A stretch of 64,000 nt of DNA from Rhodobacterales bacterium (GTDB lineage Bacteria; Pseudomonadota; Alphaproteobacteria; Rhodobacterales; Rhodobacteraceae): NCBI GenBank assembly GCA_033839205.1, contig JAJLKH010000096.1, positions 12,510 to 76,509 on the forward strand. The letters are read 5' to 3'. The notes beneath the pieces were generated by a model. The model did not search any database, was not told the DNA's origin, and saw only the letters and a program-made list of their open reading frames with translations. Position numbers and translations under genes: made by a program. Numbering within the stretch: position 1 is the first letter of the stretch; each line of letters begins with the position of its first letter. Shown in pieces: positions 18,607 through 30,899 of this stretch.

Positions 18607-18622
18607 TTAACCTGGCGTTAAC
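18607..18622 (+). promoter_or_regulatory. Candidate CtrA-type box TTAACCTGGCGTTAAC (TTAA-N7-TTAAC)
   Basis: This is a perfect match to the TTAA-N7-TTAAC pattern. It forms an 11-bp direct repeat CGTTAACC, 57 nt upstream of the Hint-domain ORF start. Confidence 0.45.
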
Positions 18623-18678: not shown

Positions 18679-19668
18679 GTGCCGACGATCGAGATCTTCG
18701 CCACAGGCGACGAAATAGGCACCTTTAGCAGCGTGTCATCATCCGGTAATTCCAACGGGATGAAGGTGACGTTGGGGGGCGTGCAGCCGCTGGGCAGTGC
18801 GACGGACGTGTTTCGGATCGTGATCCGGCAAGTCAACACCGGCGGCGCCTTGTTTCAGAACGGGCAGTTGGTCGACATTTATGCCTGGCCCGATACCGAT
18901 CCGCCTTCACCGCCGATCTATTCCTCGCTCAACCCGCAGCATGATCAGTTCCAGGGCCGCGCCTCGTCGGCGGAGCATCAGATCTTTACCAGCGCCGGGG
19001 TAGTGCTTGACCTCAACGGGATCACGGCGGGCACGCTGCAATATGGTCCCGGCATCAACCCTCCGCGCGATCAGCAACTGTCGTTTACCAGTTTCTCACC
19101 CGATCCGCCCGTCTTTCCATGCTTTGCCGCGGGCACCCTGATCGAGGCAGAGGGCGGACCGAGGGCGGTGGAAACCCTGAGAGAAGGGGATCTGGTGCTG
19201 ACCGCCGACAACGGGCTGCAACCGATCCGCTGGATCGGACAGCGCCGGGTCTCGGGACTGGATCGTCTGGCGCCGATCCTGATCAAGGCGGGCGCCCTGG
19301 GCAATTACCGTGACCTGCTGGTATCGCCGCAGCACCGGATGCTGATGCAGGATTGGCGCATGCAGATCTATTTCGCCGCACCGCAGGTTCTGGTGGCGGC
19401 AAAGCACCTGGTGAACGGCAAAACCATCACATTGGCCCCAAGGCAGCAGATCACATATGTCCATCTGGCCTTTGACCGGCACGAGATCATCTTTGCCGAG
19501 GGCTGCCCCAGCGAAAGCCTGTTTCTGGCCGATGAATCCATGGCTTCTCTTGGTGCAGAGGCGTTGGCCGAACTGAGAGAGATCTTTCCCGAGTTGCGTG
19601 ATCACGCGCCCGGCGGCAAGGCCGCGCGGGCGTTCCTGCGCGGATGGGAAGCCGCGTTGGTCGCATGA
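18679..19668 (+). CDS. Hint (bacterial intein-like, BIL) domain-containing protein
   Basis: The C-terminal module starts with CFAAGT (Cys codon 19120..19122). It continues with GDLVLTADNGLQPIRWIGQRRV, SPQHRML and IIFAEGCPSESLF. The N-terminal 147 aa are unrecognised. The GTG start is uncertain. Confidence 0.8.
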   Translation: MPTIEIFATGDEIGTFSSVSSSGNSNGMKVTLGGVQPLGSATDVFRIVIRQVNTGGALFQNGQLVDIYAWPDTDPPSPPIYSSLNPQHDQFQGRASSAEHQIFTSAGVVLDLNGITAGTLQYGPGINPPRDQQLSFTSFSPDPPVFPCFAAGTLIEAEGGPRAVETLREGDLVLTADNGLQPIRWIGQRRVSGLDRLAPILIKAGALGNYRDLLVSPQHRMLMQDWRMQIYFAAPQVLVAAKHLVNGKTITLAPRQQITYVHLAFDRHEIIFAEGCPSESLFLADESMASLGAEALAELREIFPELRDHAPGGKAARAFLRGWEAALVA

Positions 19669-25529: not shown

Positions 25530-26357
25530 ATGTCGAACGCCGCCCTGGAAACAGCCATCGAAGCCGCCTGGGACGCCCGCGACGGCATTACCCCCGCCAC
25601 AAAGGGCGAGACGCGCGATGCAATCGAAGCAACGCTGGATGCGCTGGACAGCGGCAAGCTTCGCGTGGCGGAGCGTCAGGCGGACGGTCAGTGGCATGTG
25701 AACCAGTGGGCCAAGAAGGCCGTGCTTCTGGGTTTCCGCATCAAGGACATGGAAGTGCATGATGGCGGCCCGCAGTCGGGCGGCTGGTGGGACAAGGTCG
25801 ACAGCAAGTTCAAGGGCTGGCAGCCCGCCGACTGGAAATCCGCAGGCTTCCGCGCGGTTCCCAACTGCGTCGTGCGCCGGTCTGCCTATATCGCGCCGGG
25901 CGTGGTGCTGATGCCGTCTTTCGTGAACCTGGGCGCCTATGTCGACAGCGGCACCATGGTCGACACATGGGCCACGGTTGGCAGCTGCGCGCAGATCGGC
26001 AAGAACGTGCACCTGTCGGGTGGCGTGGGCATCGGCGGCGTGCTGGAACCGATGCAGGCGGGCCCCACGATCATTGAGGACAACTGCTTTATAGGCGCGC
26101 GTTCGGAAGTGGTCGAAGGCTGCATCGTGCGCGAAGGTTCGGTGCTGGGCATGGGTGTCTTCATCGGCAAATCCACCAAGATCGTGGACCGCGAGACCGG
26201 CGAAGTGATGTATGGCGAAGTGCCGGCCGGTTCGGTCGTTGTCGCAGGTTCGATGCCGTCGAAGAACGGGATCAACCTTTACTGCGCCGTGATCGTCAAG
26301 AAGGTGGACGCGCAGACCCGCTCGAAGACCTCGATCAACGAGCTGTTGCGTGACTGA
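25530..26357 (+). CDS. dapD: 2,3,4,5-tetrahydropyridine-2,6-dicarboxylate N-succinyltransferase
   Basis: 275 aa with hexapeptide-repeat LbH core and the typical DapD N-terminus (AAWDARD..TP). Confidence 0.92.
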
Positions 26358-26694
26358 TCAGCCCGAAAAGCCCAAGAAGAAACCATCGCGCCAGCAGGTC
26401 TATACCCTGCTGGTCGAGGTGGGCCGCAAGGAAGGCGACGGGCTGCCGCCCAAATCCACCGGTGCGGCGCTGATGATCTATGCATCCGGCGTGGATGAGG
26501 CCGAAGCCGTGCGCGAGACGGTGGCGATCCTGAAGCAGGCCGACATGGCCCCGCTTGACGTGACGGGATACGGCACGCTCGAGGAACGGCTGGCCGATGG
26601 CCAGGAAATCGACGAGGACGAACGCGCCCTGATGGCCCGCGCGCTTGAGGAAAACGCCGTCATCGTGGCGCAGATGACCCCTTTCGAGGACTGA
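26350..26694 (+). CDS. Hypothetical acidic protein (114 aa), translationally coupled to dapD
   Basis: The GTG start overlaps the dapD stop (GTGACTGA). Codon usage is consistent with the neighbours. I recognise no family. Confidence 0.55.
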
Positions 26695-26710: not shown

Positions 26711-27811
26711 CTAGGCCGCCCGGCGCTCGGACAGGGTGATTGCCTCGTAGGCGCGCAGCACGGGATAGGCCGAAGCGGCATGATCCGGCAGGCGCGACCG
26801 TTCGATCCCCGCCAGCAGGCTGGCCGCAAGGCGCGCGTGATTGCGCCTGATCCGACCGATAAACAGGCTTTCCATCGGCGTACCCGCGGCAAGGATCGCC
26901 TCATGGGCCGGCAACAGGACCTGCCCATAGGTCGCTGTGGGACCCGTCGCGCAGAAATGCGCGGCCGTTCCGTTGACCAGATGCCTTGCGGGCACCAGCA
27001 CGAATTCCTCATCGAACAGATATTCGACATCCGACCCACCGATCACAAGCATCTGTTCCGGGGCGACGACGATATCCTGCTGGAGGCCGAAATAGGGTGC
27101 GCGCAACCGCACAGGCCGGAGGAATCCGCGCGCGGGCACGGTGCGGCGCAGCACATGCAGCACCGGCTGTGTGGTGCCATCCGCCAGCCGCATGACATCG
27201 CCGCGCTTGACCTGGCCCAAAGGCTTGTACCCATAAGGCGTGCACAGGGGCACGCGCGCATCCAGCGTCGGCAGGGGGCCGACGGGTTCGATCCGCGTCG
27301 AGATCGCGAAGAAGGTCACTTCGGGATCCATGGACCGCATGGCGGGCATCATCGTCACCGCATGCACATCGCCGAGCGGCAGGGGTGGCGGATCGCTCAG
27401 TTCGGTCATGAACTGCACCGGCTGGTTCGGCTTTTCCACGACCAGCCGCCCCCAGCGGGCGGGCGCATCCCAGGAATAGCTGATGCGCAGCGTTTCATCA
27501 CCCCCGGTGGCATCGTGCTTGACCACGCAGTGACAGGCATCGTTTCCCTGGAATACGACAAGGGCGATACCGCCGCCGGGCAAGGCCCGCAGCGACAACC
27601 CGCGCCGCCAGGGGTGGGCCTGGTCCCATTCCAGAAGGGTCTGGGGCCGCCCGTCGGGGGCAAGCCGTGCCTCCATCAGCAGGGTCCCCCGCGTCAGAAG
27701 CGCCAGCGGATCGTCACGCTGCAGCGAGGTTTCGGAACGGCCGGCATCGCTGCCGAGACCGGAGCAGGAAAACCGCGGGTCCATCGAGTCGGCGATCGCA
27801 ATCCATGCCAT
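26711..27811 (-). CDS. Degenerate Hint-like domain protein
   Basis: Its C-terminal half aligns by eye block for block with the neighbouring Hint module: GDVMRLADGTTQPVLHVLRRTV, VAPEQMLVI, GTPMESLF. It lacks the CFxxGT start and the block-B His. The ATG lies 1 nt after the stop of the upstream gene. Confidence 0.65.
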   Translation of the reverse strand: MAWIAIADSMDPRFSCSGLGSDAGRSETSLQRDDPLALLTRGTLLMEARLAPDGRPQTLLEWDQAHPWRRGLSLRALPGGGIALVVFQGNDACHCVVKHDATGGDETLRISYSWDAPARWGRLVVEKPNQPVQFMTELSDPPPLPLGDVHAVTMMPAMRSMDPEVTFFAISTRIEPVGPLPTLDARVPLCTPYGYKPLGQVKRGDVMRLADGTTQPVLHVLRRTVPARGFLRPVRLRAPYFGLQQDIVVAPEQMLVIGGSDVEYLFDEEFVLVPARHLVNGTAAHFCATGPTATYGQVLLPAHEAILAAGTPMESLFIGRIRRNHARLAASLLAGIERSRLPDHAASAYPVLRAYEAITLSERRAA

Positions 27812-27812
27812 G

Positions 27813-29411
27813 TCAGGCCACCCGCCGTTCGGCCTGCAACAGGCGCGCCTCGTAGCAGCGCAACATGCGCCGCGCGGCCGGGCTGTAACCCTGCCCCGTC
27901 ACCGGATCCAGCTCCGGGAACAGGGCCGTGATCTCGCCGATGACATCGGCCTCGAAAGACCGAGCGATCTGGGGACCCGGCAGGAAGCTTTCGGTTTCGA
28001 GCCCTTCGGAAAAGACCACCTGGTGCCGGTCGAACAGGATATGCACGTAATCGACCATGCCACCTTCGATCCGGCGCACGCTTCGATCATTGACGAGGTC
28101 ACGCGCCGCGACCAGAACCTCGCGCTCGCCGAACAGGACCTCGGCCAGGCTGTCGCGGATCAGGACGCGGTGCAGGGGCGAGACCATCAGGCTGCGATGC
28201 TCGCCAAAGGTATTGGCCGCGATGAAGATCGGCGCAAACTCCGCCCGCGCCTCGACCCGGCGCTGGCCGATCCAGCGCAGCGGTTGCGGGCCGTCATCCT
28301 TTGTCAGGACCAGGTCGCCCGGTGTCAGGGTTTCGACCGGAACCTCGCCCCGCGGGGTCATGACCATCGTGCCGGCCACGAAACAGGGAACTGAATCGAC
28401 GATCACGAAACCTGTATCGGTCTGCCCGGTGCTGCTGGCGACCGTGTAGGTGAAATTCGCCACCTCGACATTGCCGTCACCCACGACCGTCAGCGTGCCA
28501 TCGGCGTTCACCGTCACCTGCTGCCCGGTTCCCAGGGTCAGGACAGTGCCCACCACGACGGGCTGGCCGTTGATATGGGTGATGGTCAGCACCCCACCCG
28601 TGGCGTTCACATCATTGCCAAGGACGTCGATCACCACGGAGCCGTTGGGATAGATCTCGGCCAAGTCCGTTTGCGCGACCAGCACCGTCTGGACCGAATT
28701 GCCCGCGATCAGCACATTGGTGTCATATTGGGAATCCAGCACATCCGCGATGCCGATTCGGATCGAGTTGACCTCGCCCGGGTTCACCACCATCGTCAGG
28801 GTCATGGTGACGGTGAAGCCGTCCATCTCGGTGTTGTAGGGGCTGCCCACGTTGGAGATGAAGAGGTTCTGGTTGCTGCCCGCATTCAGGTTGTTGGGAT
28901 CGACATCCCCGTCGCCCACCGCCAGTTCGACCTGTTGGCCGTTGACCCAGACGCCGAAGAAATCCTGATAGGCGCCATTTGCGAATTCAGGATACTCCTC
29001 GGAGGAGAAGACGAATTGCATCGTCATCAGGTTGCCGGTGGGGATGAAATCCACGTCCAGCCAGGCCGCATCAAAGGTGCTGGTGCCGGCGGCCGCGTTG
29101 AACTGCGCGTTGTTGTTCACGCCCGATGTGTCGGTTGTTCTGGACGCGCTCAGGTTGGCCTGGGTCGGGTTTGCATTGCTGCCACCGGCCGCGTTGGTGA
29201 AATCATTCGCCCGCCCGGTTGACAGGATCACGCCTGTATCGCTGGGGGTCACGAAGGGCGATACACTGTCACCGTTGCTGTAGATGCCTGACGAGCGCGC
29301 GTCTCCGGTGTAGCTTGCGCTGACCACGGTGACACCATCACCGAAGATCTCGTTGGCCATCTGCAATGCAGAGGCGTTCGTGTTCACCGGCAACCTGGAT
29401 GCTGCAACCAT
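27813..29411 (-). CDS. Choice-of-anchor-L-like / cadherin-like / Hint (BIL) domain protein
   Basis: The N-terminal region carries FVFSSEEYPEF, EMDGFT and IGIADVLDSQYDTNVLI. A middle segment reads DVLGNDVNATGG..VTVNADGTLTV. The Hint module starts at CFVAGT (Cys343, codon 28383..28385), followed by LRWIGQRRV, SPLHRVL and VVFSEGLETESF. Confidence 0.85.
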   Translation of the reverse strand: MVAASRLPVNTNASALQMANEIFGDGVTVVSASYTGDARSSGIYSNGDSVSPFVTPSDTGVILSTGRANDFTNAAGGSNANPTQANLSASRTTDTSGVNNNAQFNAAAGTSTFDAAWLDVDFIPTGNLMTMQFVFSSEEYPEFANGAYQDFFGVWVNGQQVELAVGDGDVDPNNLNAGSNQNLFISNVGSPYNTEMDGFTVTMTLTMVVNPGEVNSIRIGIADVLDSQYDTNVLIAGNSVQTVLVAQTDLAEIYPNGSVVIDVLGNDVNATGGVLTITHINGQPVVVGTVLTLGTGQQVTVNADGTLTVVGDGNVEVANFTYTVASSTGQTDTGFVIVDSVPCFVAGTMVMTPRGEVPVETLTPGDLVLTKDDGPQPLRWIGQRRVEARAEFAPIFIAANTFGEHRSLMVSPLHRVLIRDSLAEVLFGEREVLVAARDLVNDRSVRRIEGGMVDYVHILFDRHQVVFSEGLETESFLPGPQIARSFEADVIGEITALFPELDPVTGQGYSPAARRMLRCYEARLLQAERRVA

Positions 29412-29559
29412 TTATATCCTGCCCCACTTGGCCTGAGACAGGACAGCACAAGATCCGTGACACGCGAATGGCGCGCCGTGTGCCGGCCGGAGCCTGCACA
29501 TTCCTTGATCCGGACCACGTTGGATCCTGCTGCTTTCGACCTGCCTCGGGTCTTATTGA

Positions 29560-29575
29560 TTAAAGCGGAGTTAAC
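29560..29575 (-). promoter_or_regulatory. Candidate CtrA-type box TTAAAGCGGAGTTAAC (TTAA-N7-TTAAC)
   Basis: This is a perfect pattern match about 150 nt upstream of the Hint operon start (29411). A third GTTAACACT copy lies at 29593..29601. Confidence 0.45.
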
Positions 29576-29729
29576 ACTTTCGTTTCGGCGCTGTTAACAC
29601 TCTTCCACCCGGACCCATGCTATCGCCATGAAATTGCGCCTTTTCCGACACATACGCACAATCCTTGATTGTTTGCCGTGACGGAAAAACCAGTCTATCG
29701 ATGCACAACCCCATGAAAGGACCCCATCC

Positions 29730-30899
29730 ATGGCCCAGACACCCAGCACTGCACATGCCCCGGTCGACCCCGCGGATCTGACCGTGCAGCTGATCCGCTG
29801 CCCCTCGGTGACGCCGGAAGAAGGCGGCGCGCTGGTTCTGTTGCAATCTTTGCTGGAAAGCGCGGGCTTTGCCTGTACCCGCGTGGATAGGGGCGCGGTA
29901 TCCAACCTCTTCGCGCGCTGGGGCGCGAAAGGGCATCCCCATACCTTCGGCTTCAACGGGCACACCGATGTGGTCCCCGTGGGTGACGAGGCCGCATGGA
30001 CCGTGCCGCCCTTCGGCGGGGTGATCAAGGACGGCCAGATCTGGGGACGCGGGGCCACCGACATGAAATCGGGTGTCGCCGCCTTTGCCGCGGCCGCGAT
30101 TGATTTCGTGCGCCAGACCCCGCCCGACGGGGCGGTGGTTCTGACCATCACCGGCGATGAGGAAGGCGACGCGGTGGATGGCACGACCGCGCTTCTGGAC
30201 TGGATGCGTGACAATGGCGAGGCGATGAGCGTCTGCCTTGTGGGTGAGCCCACCTGCCCCGAACGCATGGGCGAGATGATCAAGATCGGGCGGCGCGGAT
30301 CGCTGACCGCGTTTTTCACCGTGACGGGGGTGCAGGGACATTCCGCCTATCCGCACCGCGCCAGGAACCCGCTGCCCGCGATGGCGCGTCTGATGGACCG
30401 CCTGTCCAGCCATGAACTGGACCGGGGCAACGACCATTTCGACCCCTCGACCCTGGCGGTGGTGACCATCGACACGGGCAATCCCGCCACCAACGTGATT
30501 CCCGCCCAGTGCCGTGCCAGCGTGAACATCCGCTTCAATGATATCCACTCGGGCGCCAGCCTGACCGATTGGCTGCGCGCAGAGGCGGACAGGGTGGCCG
30601 AGGAATTCGGCGTAGCCGTGGACATGACAGTGAAGATCTCCGGCGAAAGCTTTCTGACCCCGCCCGGAGCGCTGTCGGACTTGGTCAGCGCGGCGGTGCA
30701 GGCGGAAACCAACGTGGTGCCTGTCCTTTCCACCTCGGGCGGAACCTCGGATGCCAGATTCGTCAAGGATCACTGTCCGGTGGTGGAATTCGGCCTTGTC
30801 GGCCGCACGATGCACCAGGTCGATGAACGGGTTGATATCGCCCATATCCACCAGCTCAAGTCTATCTACACCCGCATCCTGTGCAGCTATTTCGGTTAG
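29730..30899 (+). CDS. dapE: Succinyl-diaminopimelate desuccinylase
   Basis: M20 peptidase motifs GHTDVVP and [10 protein letters not shown] are present. The 389-aa length is typical of DapE. Confidence 0.92.

Follow-up and report, generated by a model that had tools for sequence, protein, structure and literature searches.

A conserved gene pair beside dapE in Rhodobacterales encodes one Hint-domain protein with intact catalytic residues and one without them

The DNA analysed here is a stretch of 64,000 nucleotides (nt) of contig JAJLKH010000096.1 from a Rhodobacterales bacterium (assembly GCA_033839205.1). It is called the window below, and coordinates are window positions unless a locus is named. 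The subject is a pair of adjacent minus-strand genes between dapD and dapE, both of which encode proteins with a Hint domain. The names P1 for the first gene and P2 for the one directly downstream are used for the genes and their products. In P1, an adhesin-like cargo is followed by a Hint domain with intact catalytic residues, and in P2, a predicted lectin-like domain is joined to a Hint domain in which these residues are replaced. An earlier reading of the sequence (the original prediction) had placed two open reading frames here, and both frames and the junction between them are read directly from the DNA:

27813..29411, minus strand: P1, 532 amino acids (aa), with choice-of-anchor-L, Big_9 Ig-like and intact Hint_2 domains, the last like a B-type bacterial intein-like (BIL) domain, and a conserved tail
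26711..27811, minus strand: P2, 366 aa, with a predicted laminin-G/ConA-like beta-sandwich, a Hint_2 domain predicted to be catalytically dead, and a tail
27809..27815, minus strand: stop/start junction TGAcATG, with a 1-nt spacer, from P1 to P2

The following parts are distinguished within P1:

28692..29363, minus strand: choice-of-anchor-L domain, residues 17-240 (NCBIfam NF038133, E 1.4e-47, 162 bits against a cutoff of 27)
28398..28679, minus strand: Big_9 / cadherin-like Ig domain, residues 245-338 (PF17963, E 1.2e-6)
27975..28388, minus strand: Hint_2 domain, residues 342-479 (PF13403, profile 1-146, E 1.6e-51, 175 bits against a cutoff of 28.4)
28388..28383, minus strand: codons of the predicted scissile junction Pro342-Cys343, at the start of Hint_2
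27816..27974, minus strand: conserved C-terminal tail, residues 480-532, about 50 aa, beyond the Pfam Hint_2 model

The four-part architecture that had been proposed for P1 is borne out by the profile matches to choice_anch_L, Big_9 and Hint_2 together with the conserved tail, and a Cadherin_4 match is found too in some orthologs. The Hint module does start at Cys343, within the entry motif VPCFVAGT, and the block-B motif S411-P-L-H414, followed by R, is also where it had been placed. For the comparison among genomes, one genome per species was scanned; P2 relatives were found in 460 species genomes, and the best 80 loci of these 460 were analysed. In the P1 orthologs from these loci (n=65), Pro342 is present in 65/65, Cys343 in 64/65 and His414 in 65/65, and residues 480-525 of the tail show strong column conservation. 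The orthologs are full length, 68-96% identical and found at a fixed locus. The P1 tail is homologous to the tails of P2 and of a third Hint protein in the window. The C-terminal His-Asn motif of inteins and the +1 nucleophile are absent from P1, where the domain ends with ...GLETESFLPG and is followed by the tail. P1 has in common with B-type BIL domains the full Hint_2 profile, the N-terminal Cys, the block-B His and the lack of a C-terminal His-Asn, and by all sequence criteria tested it is a Hint_2 protein of this type. Also like them, it is alphaproteobacterial and has its Hint domain at the C-terminus of a secreted- or surface-looking protein, so that N-terminal autocleavage would be expected. 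N-terminal cleavage by B-type BIL domains is seen in vitro, and they possess every intein motif but the C-terminal one (PMC7765530).

The structure model of P1 is of moderate confidence, with a predicted local distance difference test (pLDDT) score of 66 that drops below 50 in the tail. In Foldseek searches with this moderate-confidence model, the cargo matched the peptide-binding domains of the RTX adhesins FrhA and MpIBP, MAM-Ig and CBM51, and the Hint part matched inteins, the BIL structure 2lwy and the Hedgehog Hh-C domain (1at0). Judging by the model, P1 may resemble RTX adhesins such as FrhA of V. cholerae and MpIBP of Marinomonas in combining a peptide-binding beta-sandwich with Ig-like modules and in having no signal peptide. 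However, it lacks the RTX repeats and the retention module of these adhesins. By inspection, neither P1 nor P2 has an N-terminal signal peptide. No PEP-CTERM, LPXTG or type IX secretion system (T9SS) sorting signal was found in the P1 sequence, the C-terminus of which is made up of Hint_2 and the tail. Choice-of-anchor-L surface proteins, to which P1 is related by its choice_anch_L match, typically carry one of several C-terminal sorting signals (PEP-CTERM, LPXTG, T9SS). P1 is unlike them in that Hint_2 and the tail occupy the place where the sorting signal would sit.

P2 is composed of the following parts:

27272..27811, minus strand: N-terminal domain, residues 1 to ~180, a predicted jelly-roll of laminin-G / neurexin LNS / CBM40 / ConA-like lectin type
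26855..27271, minus strand: pseudo-Hint, residues 181-319, with a Hint_2 profile match
27268..27266, minus strand: Thr182 in place of Cys1
27055..27053, minus strand: Gln253 in place of the block-B His
26714..26854, minus strand: C-terminal tail, residues 320-366, homologous to the P1 tail

The alignment of P2 with the Hint domain of P1, which had been made by eye, is confirmed by profile, BLASTP, HMM-HMM and Foldseek comparisons. The Hint_2 profile matches P2 at residues 190-319 (profile 10-146, E 1.4e-25, 90.9 bits against the cutoff of 28.4). By BLASTP, the Hint and tail of P1 are 30% identical to P2 over 200 aa without large gaps (E 1e-16), and HMM-HMM comparison of the ortholog alignments of the two Hint+tail regions gives a probability of 99.8% over 181 columns (E 4.5e-29). 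Sequence searches against solved structures gave only a marginal match, to BIL 2lwy. The AlphaFold2 model of P2, built with 24 orthologs, has a pLDDT of 90.8 and a predicted TM-score (pTM) of 0.88, and its tail is ordered (pLDDT ~85-90). The closest structures to its Hint half are Tetrahymena BIL2 (6y75) and the inteins 6riy and 6mwy (TMt 0.6-0.68). In the alignment, Cys343 of P1 is equivalent to Thr182 of P2 and His414 to Gln253, and the loss of the entry Cys and the presence of Gln for the block-B His are thus seen just as the original prediction had them. Judged on its residues, P2 is a member of the Hint fold family that fails the catalytic criteria, and it would be unable to cut itself because the nucleophile and the block-B His have been removed.

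The N-terminal half of P2 had been called unrecognisable. This stands as far as sequence families are concerned, since outside Hint_2 neither Pfam nor NCBIfam gave a match for this domain, but not for the fold, which in a confident model is predicted to be a laminin-G/ConA-like beta-sandwich. In Foldseek, the domain was matched with LNS, LG and CBM40 domains with a probability of 1.0 and a TMt of ~0.4. It is not a diverged choice-of-anchor-L or Big_9 domain (hhalign probability <1%). An exhaustive HMMER search with the P2 N-domain alone yielded 255 clusters at 50% identity. Among the 150 matches listed, the full-length members of the P2 family are ~345-370 aa long, and because of this fixed length the two-domain architecture is considered essentially fixed. 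Across 115 P2 clusters, the Cys1 position is occupied by G, T, S or A in all but a few, and the lone sequence with Cys at this position (P0146) is truncated at block B. The nucleophile loss is therefore a defining and ancient trait of the family. The rest of the active site appears from the alignment to be eroded in a graded fashion: the block-B position is mostly Gln across the 115 clusters and Gln253 is invariant among close orthologs, and about 14 distant members have His and also keep the 'xFxAGT' motif. The Cys in 'PLCTPYG' of P2 was considered as a displaced nucleophile and rejected, for it is not conserved and is Ala in most members.

Against close relatives, omega was 0.05-0.11 for P1 and 0.10-0.15 for P2, the latter in every segment including the pseudo-Hint and the tail. 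Purifying selection thus acts on all segments of P1 and of P2. Since this holds for every segment, the P2 Hint is not decaying. The description of this Hint as degenerate is therefore right in that the catalytic residues are gone and wrong if decay is meant, because the state is an ancient and selected one (omega ~0.1).

The pair is flanked by two genes of the dap pathway, both of which had been named before and are supported by equivalog-level profile matches:

25530..26357: dapD
29730..30899: dapE, the divergent neighbour of P1

The named genomes among the analysed loci all belong to Rhodobacterales. The closest P2 relatives (88-96% identity) are found in Seohaeicola, and the other genera with the locus include Roseovarius, Sulfitobacter, Thalassovita, Lutimaribacter, Shimia, Sediminimonas and others; the distant relatives are almost all metagenomic proteins. 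The divergent upstream neighbour is dapE in 76/76 loci with enough sequence, and dapD lies inside the downstream flank in 48/70 loci. Even distant P2 relatives, with ~30% identity in the N-domain, show the same dapE-P1-P2 order with an ATGA overlap (loci L089 and L090). In the 66 loci where P2 comes immediately after P1, the tight coupling noted at the outset is nearly always kept, the stop-to-start distance being -4 to +5 nt in 63/66.

The pair had also been regarded as an insertion that interrupts a dapD/dapE neighbourhood and as lower in GC than its flanks (~60% against ~66%). Neither claim survived. The overall GC content is 62.5% for P1, 66.7% for P2 and 64.7% for the window, with 60% in the P1 cargo, and the GC content at third codon positions (GC3) is 0.79-0.82 for P1, P2 and all neighbours, equal to the flanks. 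Because GC3 is unchanged, the lower GC of the P1 cargo is attributed to amino-acid composition and not to foreign origin. With dapE next to the pair in 76/76 loci, gene order kept down to ~30% identity and GC3 like that of the flanks, the pair is ancestral and not a foreign insertion. An explanation in which P2 is a decaying duplicate and the pair a recent, horizontally acquired insertion between dapD and dapE could draw on the lost catalytic residues and on that hand count of GC. It is refuted, and we give it practically no credence, by the low omega in all P2 segments, by 63 near-invariant P2 positions, by the occurrence of the gene at fixed length in 460 genomes, and by the constant dapE neighbour and the GC3 values.

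Several loci have additional Hint genes. A second P1-like gene (~50% identity; choice-of-anchor-L and Hint) is found shortly downstream of P2 in Shimia thalassica and in a Thalassobius genome (L064 9680..11236; L080 10598..12160), and more Hint_2+tail paralogs lie within 8 kb in L009, L011, L028, L044 and L051. In the metagenome-assembled locus L014 (6006..7607), the P2 reading frame is 533 aa, yet the tblastn match covers 366 residues; this may reflect loss of the stop codon, gene fusion or misassembly.

The dependency between the two genes is an asymmetric one, with P2 as the core and P1 as the dispensable part. In about 12 loci P1 is missing, yet the promoter block upstream is still there, and a remnant resembling the 3' end of P1 stands directly ahead of P2. 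Because the promoter block and this remnant remain, P1 was lost by internal deletion. At the 63 most conserved positions, P2 proteins from the P1-less genomes agree in 61-63, which is no different from the copies linked to P1. On the other hand, in the P1 orthologs of which the context was examined, P2 is the next gene in every case. The expected co-occurrence of the pair is thus found in one direction, as every sampled P1 has a P2, and fails in the other, as P2 persists without P1. Since P2 is unchanged in the ~12 P1-deleted genomes, it is not solely the partner of the adjacent P1. In a mirror-tree analysis, P1 and P2 distances co-vary after control for dapE (partial r 0.33-0.47, Mantel p ~0.002).

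In Roseovarius marisflavi (L067 7103..7999), P1 is down to 298 aa, with most of the cargo gone and PCFIADT as the entry motif, while the P2 gene downstream shows no damage. P1 seems here to be in the course of being lost.

The asymmetry bears on the strongest alternative that we considered, in which P1 and P2 are functionally independent proteins that share the Hint+tail as an export or sorting module and are co-transcribed for the same envelope or adhesion programme, P2 having no effect on P1. That P2 is unchanged where P1 is missing agrees with independence, as do the unrelated N-domains of the two proteins and the third Hint_2+tail protein of the window, which has another cargo and indicates that the module is reusable. 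The near-universal stop/start coupling, the presence of P2 after every sampled P1 ortholog and the rate co-variation of the two beyond dapE speak against it, though none of these is decisive. We regard independence as plausible, though less likely than not.

Upstream of P1, and beside the third Hint gene, the following elements were located:

29560..29574: TTAA-N7-TTAA (CtrA-type) site, ~150 nt upstream of the P1 ATG, overlapping a -10-like TGTTAAC
29540..29549, minus strand: invariant CCGAGGCAGG block, promoter-proximal or in the 5' leader
29416..29444, minus strand: predicted hairpin CCUGUCUCA...UGGGGCAGG, which would sequester a Shine-Dalgarno-like stretch before the P1 AUG
18679..19668, plus strand: third Hint_2+tail gene, 329 aa, with an intact 'PCFAAGT', unlinked to the pair
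18607..18621: second TTAA-N7-TTAA site, GTTAACctggcGTTAAC, 58 nt upstream of the gene at 18679..19668

The cell-cycle/motility-type regulator box that had been reported upstream of the pair is present as a CtrA-type site. The window of 64 kb contains exactly two TTAA-N7-TTAA sites, with 0 expected from shuffles, and both lie upstream of catalytically intact Hint_2 genes. A site with <=1 mismatch at -130 to -210 is found in 34/67 P1-containing loci, compared with 1.3 expected. The third Hint_2+tail protein has an unrelated N-terminal cargo of ~145 aa and no signal peptide. By aligning the loci on the invariant block, a conserved cTTAACA-N13/14-TG(C/T)TAAC arrangement was obtained (window 29575..29615 and related loci), which is retained in P1-less loci. 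The consensus of alphaproteobacterial sigma-70 promoters is TTGACGS-N10-14-GCTANAWC. CtrA control of the pair is plausible from the sequence; it is not established, because the TTAAC elements also fit sigma-70 -35 and -10 elements and are kept in P1-less loci. The CtrA literature that was searched makes no mention of these genes. A scan for sigma-70 promoters gave zero matches to the E. coli-type consensus. A sigma-54 reading of GGCAGG-N-GC, made by eye, was rejected since the GG-N10-GC spacing is not kept across loci.

The CCGAGGCAGG block is exact in nearly all 80 loci, including the P1-less ones, and occurs in the window in one exact copy, with 1-mismatch copies at chance level. On its 3' side there is a short hairpin with a GNRA-like loop, the stem of which varies among genera, and then a variable region. 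The last leader hairpin, CUGYCUC...GRGGCAG, ends 5-12 nt before the AUG. The leader of the window folds with z = -2.31, and the Shine-Dalgarno-like strand is paired in 45/56 loci. The 5' strand of the hairpin (CUGYCUC) is equally complementary to the invariant block, which suggests that the block and the ribosome-binding strand may form an alternative-pairing switch, with GAGGCAGG, CUGCCUC and GGGGCAGG as the leader segments of the pairing model. No Rfam family matched the leader at E<=1. The P1 upstream region (29412..29729) is therefore put forward as a candidate for a new cis-regulatory leader, and the CCGAGGCAGG block could instead be a DNA element.

The CtrA-type site could also be read in favour of a viral role, in which P1 and P2 are accessory structural proteins of a gene transfer agent (GTA) or of a phage that has been domesticated, such as a fibre that binds the receptor and has a self-cleaving C-terminal module. 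They would be made in the cytoplasm of CtrA-activated producer cells and set free by lysis. The absence of signal peptides would fit, phage receptor-binding proteins often have beta folds of lectin-like and Ig-like type, and GTAs are near-universal in this group (PMC5026251). However, no relative of P2 or of the P1 cargo was found by tblastn against 50,697 phage records, there was no PHROG match, and the surroundings are housekeeping genes with no phage genes nearby. The head-spike genes of RcGTA, ghsA and ghsB (rcc01079/rcc01080), have no detectable conserved domains according to the source paper. P1 and P2 were rejected as relatives of these spikes, given products without conserved domains on one side and the lack of phage homologs on the other. 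A GTA or phage origin is considered quite improbable.

Among known systems, the cargo-Hint-tail layout of P1 is most like that of Hedgehog and Hog proteins, in which a cargo is followed by a Hint domain starting with Cys-Phe and then by a short conserved C-terminal region. By analogy, only the N-S acyl shift step would be used in P1, as in these proteins. Different cargos on one processing module are found here as in Hedgehog and nematode Hog proteins. The conserved tail lies where Hog domains have their adduct-recognition region, which directs cargo transfer to a small molecule, but its sequence does not resemble the sterol-recognition region of Hedgehog. Further differences are that P1 comes from a bacterium and that its operon also encodes a dead paralog. 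As originally characterised, BIL domains reside in the hypervariable regions of proteins that are not conserved (Amitai et al., 2003; Dassa et al., 2004; summarised in PMC7765530). P1 differs from these in being a conserved ortholog at a fixed locus, with a conserved dead paralog and a 50-aa tail outside the Pfam model. Another relative is the BUBL system of Tetrahymena (6y75, 6tmm), where BILs flank ubiquitin-like domains and whose BIL2 ranks with the closest structures to the Hint half of P2. BUBL provides a precedent for a BIL thioester that is resolved by transfer to another molecule and not by hydrolysis. BUBL differs in being a eukaryotic system with ubiquitin-like cargo and active BIL domains.

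In polymorphic toxin, contact-dependent inhibition (CDI) and MafB systems, a Hint domain severs part of a secreted multidomain protein, and P1 may by analogy do the same. Reviews describe HINT domains as releasing peptidases in polymorphic toxin systems, and the adjacent gene at a small gap recalls a toxin-immunity layout; P1 could then be an effector whose Hint frees a toxic module, with P2 as the immunity protein or antidote. In toxin systems, however, the Hint stands before a variable C-terminal toxin and the immunity gene is next, whereas in P1 the Hint is terminal, the N-terminal cargo is conserved and adhesin-like, and the next gene is a Hint paralog. After the Hint there is only the conserved 50-aa tail, common to P2, and no toxin domain. 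P1 is highly conserved and not polymorphic, and P2 is a Hint paralog that persists without P1. PADLOC returned no matches, on which ground the identity as a defence system was rejected as well. We hold a toxin role to be very improbable.

The literature searches gave no publication on the P2 family, on live/dead Hint pairing, on the dapE linkage or on the leader, and nothing specific on CtrA-regulated or exoproteome Hint proteins, pseudo-Hint domains or BUBL in relation to them. The impression of the original prediction that a pair of active and inactive Hint proteins had not been described before agrees with the literature searched.

Taken as a whole, and as a tentative reading to which we give slightly less than even weight, we hypothesize that the two genes form an operon of Roseobacter-group Rhodobacterales, inherited vertically and fixed beside dapE, in which P1 is a self-processing precursor and P2 a non-cleaving Hint-fold lectin that forms the core of the pair. 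The analysis itself shows the architecture, the fold, the loss of the catalytic residues, conservation and selection, synteny, coupling and the enrichment of the motif, and from there we infer autocleavage, export, a surface location, CtrA control, riboregulation and contact between P1 and P2. P1 would be an adhesin-like precursor in which an N-to-S acyl shift takes place at Pro342|Cys343, and the thioester would then be resolved by hydrolysis or transfer. The products would be the cargo of ~36 kDa (choice-of-anchor-L and Ig-like) and the Hint+tail of ~21 kDa. P2 would remain a single polypeptide, with its lectin-like binding domain permanently joined to the Hint-fold domain, and would be the constant component, P1 being an optional client or co-component. 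Stop/start coupling would favour joint production of the two, from a promoter with the CtrA-type TTAA-N7-TTAA site and through a structured leader that may mask the ribosome-binding site. The shared Hint+tail could be a common sorting or docking device: the live Hint of P1 would release or transfer its cargo, and the dead Hint of P2 would retain the lectin-like domain. P2 might serve P1 and paralogous Hint_2 proteins as a dock, a receptor or a regulator. The low-confidence tail in the P1 model and the ordered tail in the P2 model are compatible with a P1 tail that needs a partner. In the exoproteome of R. pomeroyi, a type-I-secretion protein without signal peptide has in its interior an intein-like region, '...NNCFVAG', that yielded no peptides (PMC2953401). 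By analogy, this protein lends indirect support to Hint-type processing in secreted Roseobacter proteins.

Several points weigh against this reading. Cleavage, secretion and interaction of P1 and P2 are themselves predictions. A Pro at -1 is unfavourable for N-terminal cleavage in canonical inteins; with Pro342 invariant at this position, P1 processing may therefore be slow, conditional or triggered. Signal peptides and RTX repeats are absent from both proteins, and the neighbourhood contains no secretion genes. The adhesin-fold matches are weakened by the pLDDT of 66 of the P1 model. Shared locus history could explain the co-variation of P1 and P2 rates. The TTAAC elements fit a sigma-70 promoter and are retained in P1-less loci, and the RNA-pairing model fails if transcription starts downstream of the invariant block.

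A stronger version of the self-processing reading can be formulated, which we consider speculative and improbable. In it, Hint_2+tail would be a bacterial Hedgehog-like anchoring module under CtrA-type cell-cycle control. The P1 thioester would transfer the cargo covalently onto an envelope acceptor, in replacement of the sorting signals, and P2 would be an obligatory dock or acceptor-presenting partner, also for other Hint_2 proteins. Translation would be gated by the leader RNA, whose 5' GAGGCAGG block would compete with the ribosome-binding site for the anti-Shine-Dalgarno-like strand.

On the other side of P2, a 114-aa open reading frame (window 26350..26694, plus strand) shares 8 nt with the end of dapD and is oriented convergently to P2. 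Its homolog was found in 57/70 related loci at ~75-99% identity, with no match among Pfam, NCBIfam and PADLOC families, and the product is apparently an uncharacterised small protein coupled to dapD. The public records P0359, P0367 and P0385, which are P1 orthologs, carry the dapD product name '2,3,4,5-tetrahydropyridine-2,6-carboxylate N-succinyltransferase'. This is an evident annotation error, and such dapD-derived naming of P1 orthologs in databases is worth correcting. In other database records, P1 and P2 are both simply 'Hint domain-containing protein'.

Ever since their description in 2003, what bacterial intein-like domains do for the cell has been an open question, and BILs were hard to study because they were characterised as scattered elements in hypervariable proteins. 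The pair described here is instead conserved, present in single copy and syntenic, and it occurs in marine bacteria that can be cultured, such as Roseovarius mucosus, Thalassovita gelatinovora and Sulfitobacter species. It offers a natural control, as there are lineages that deleted P1 yet kept P2, and a built-in live/dead comparison of one fold, together with a candidate regulatory input. P2 may dock with P1, regulate it or simply accompany it. If the dead Hint is a partner or dock, Hint domains would join the enzyme folds that have regulatory pseudoenzyme paralogs, and the pair would give a hint at how the signal-peptide-less Hint_2 proteins, which are abundant in Rhodobacterales, may be handled.

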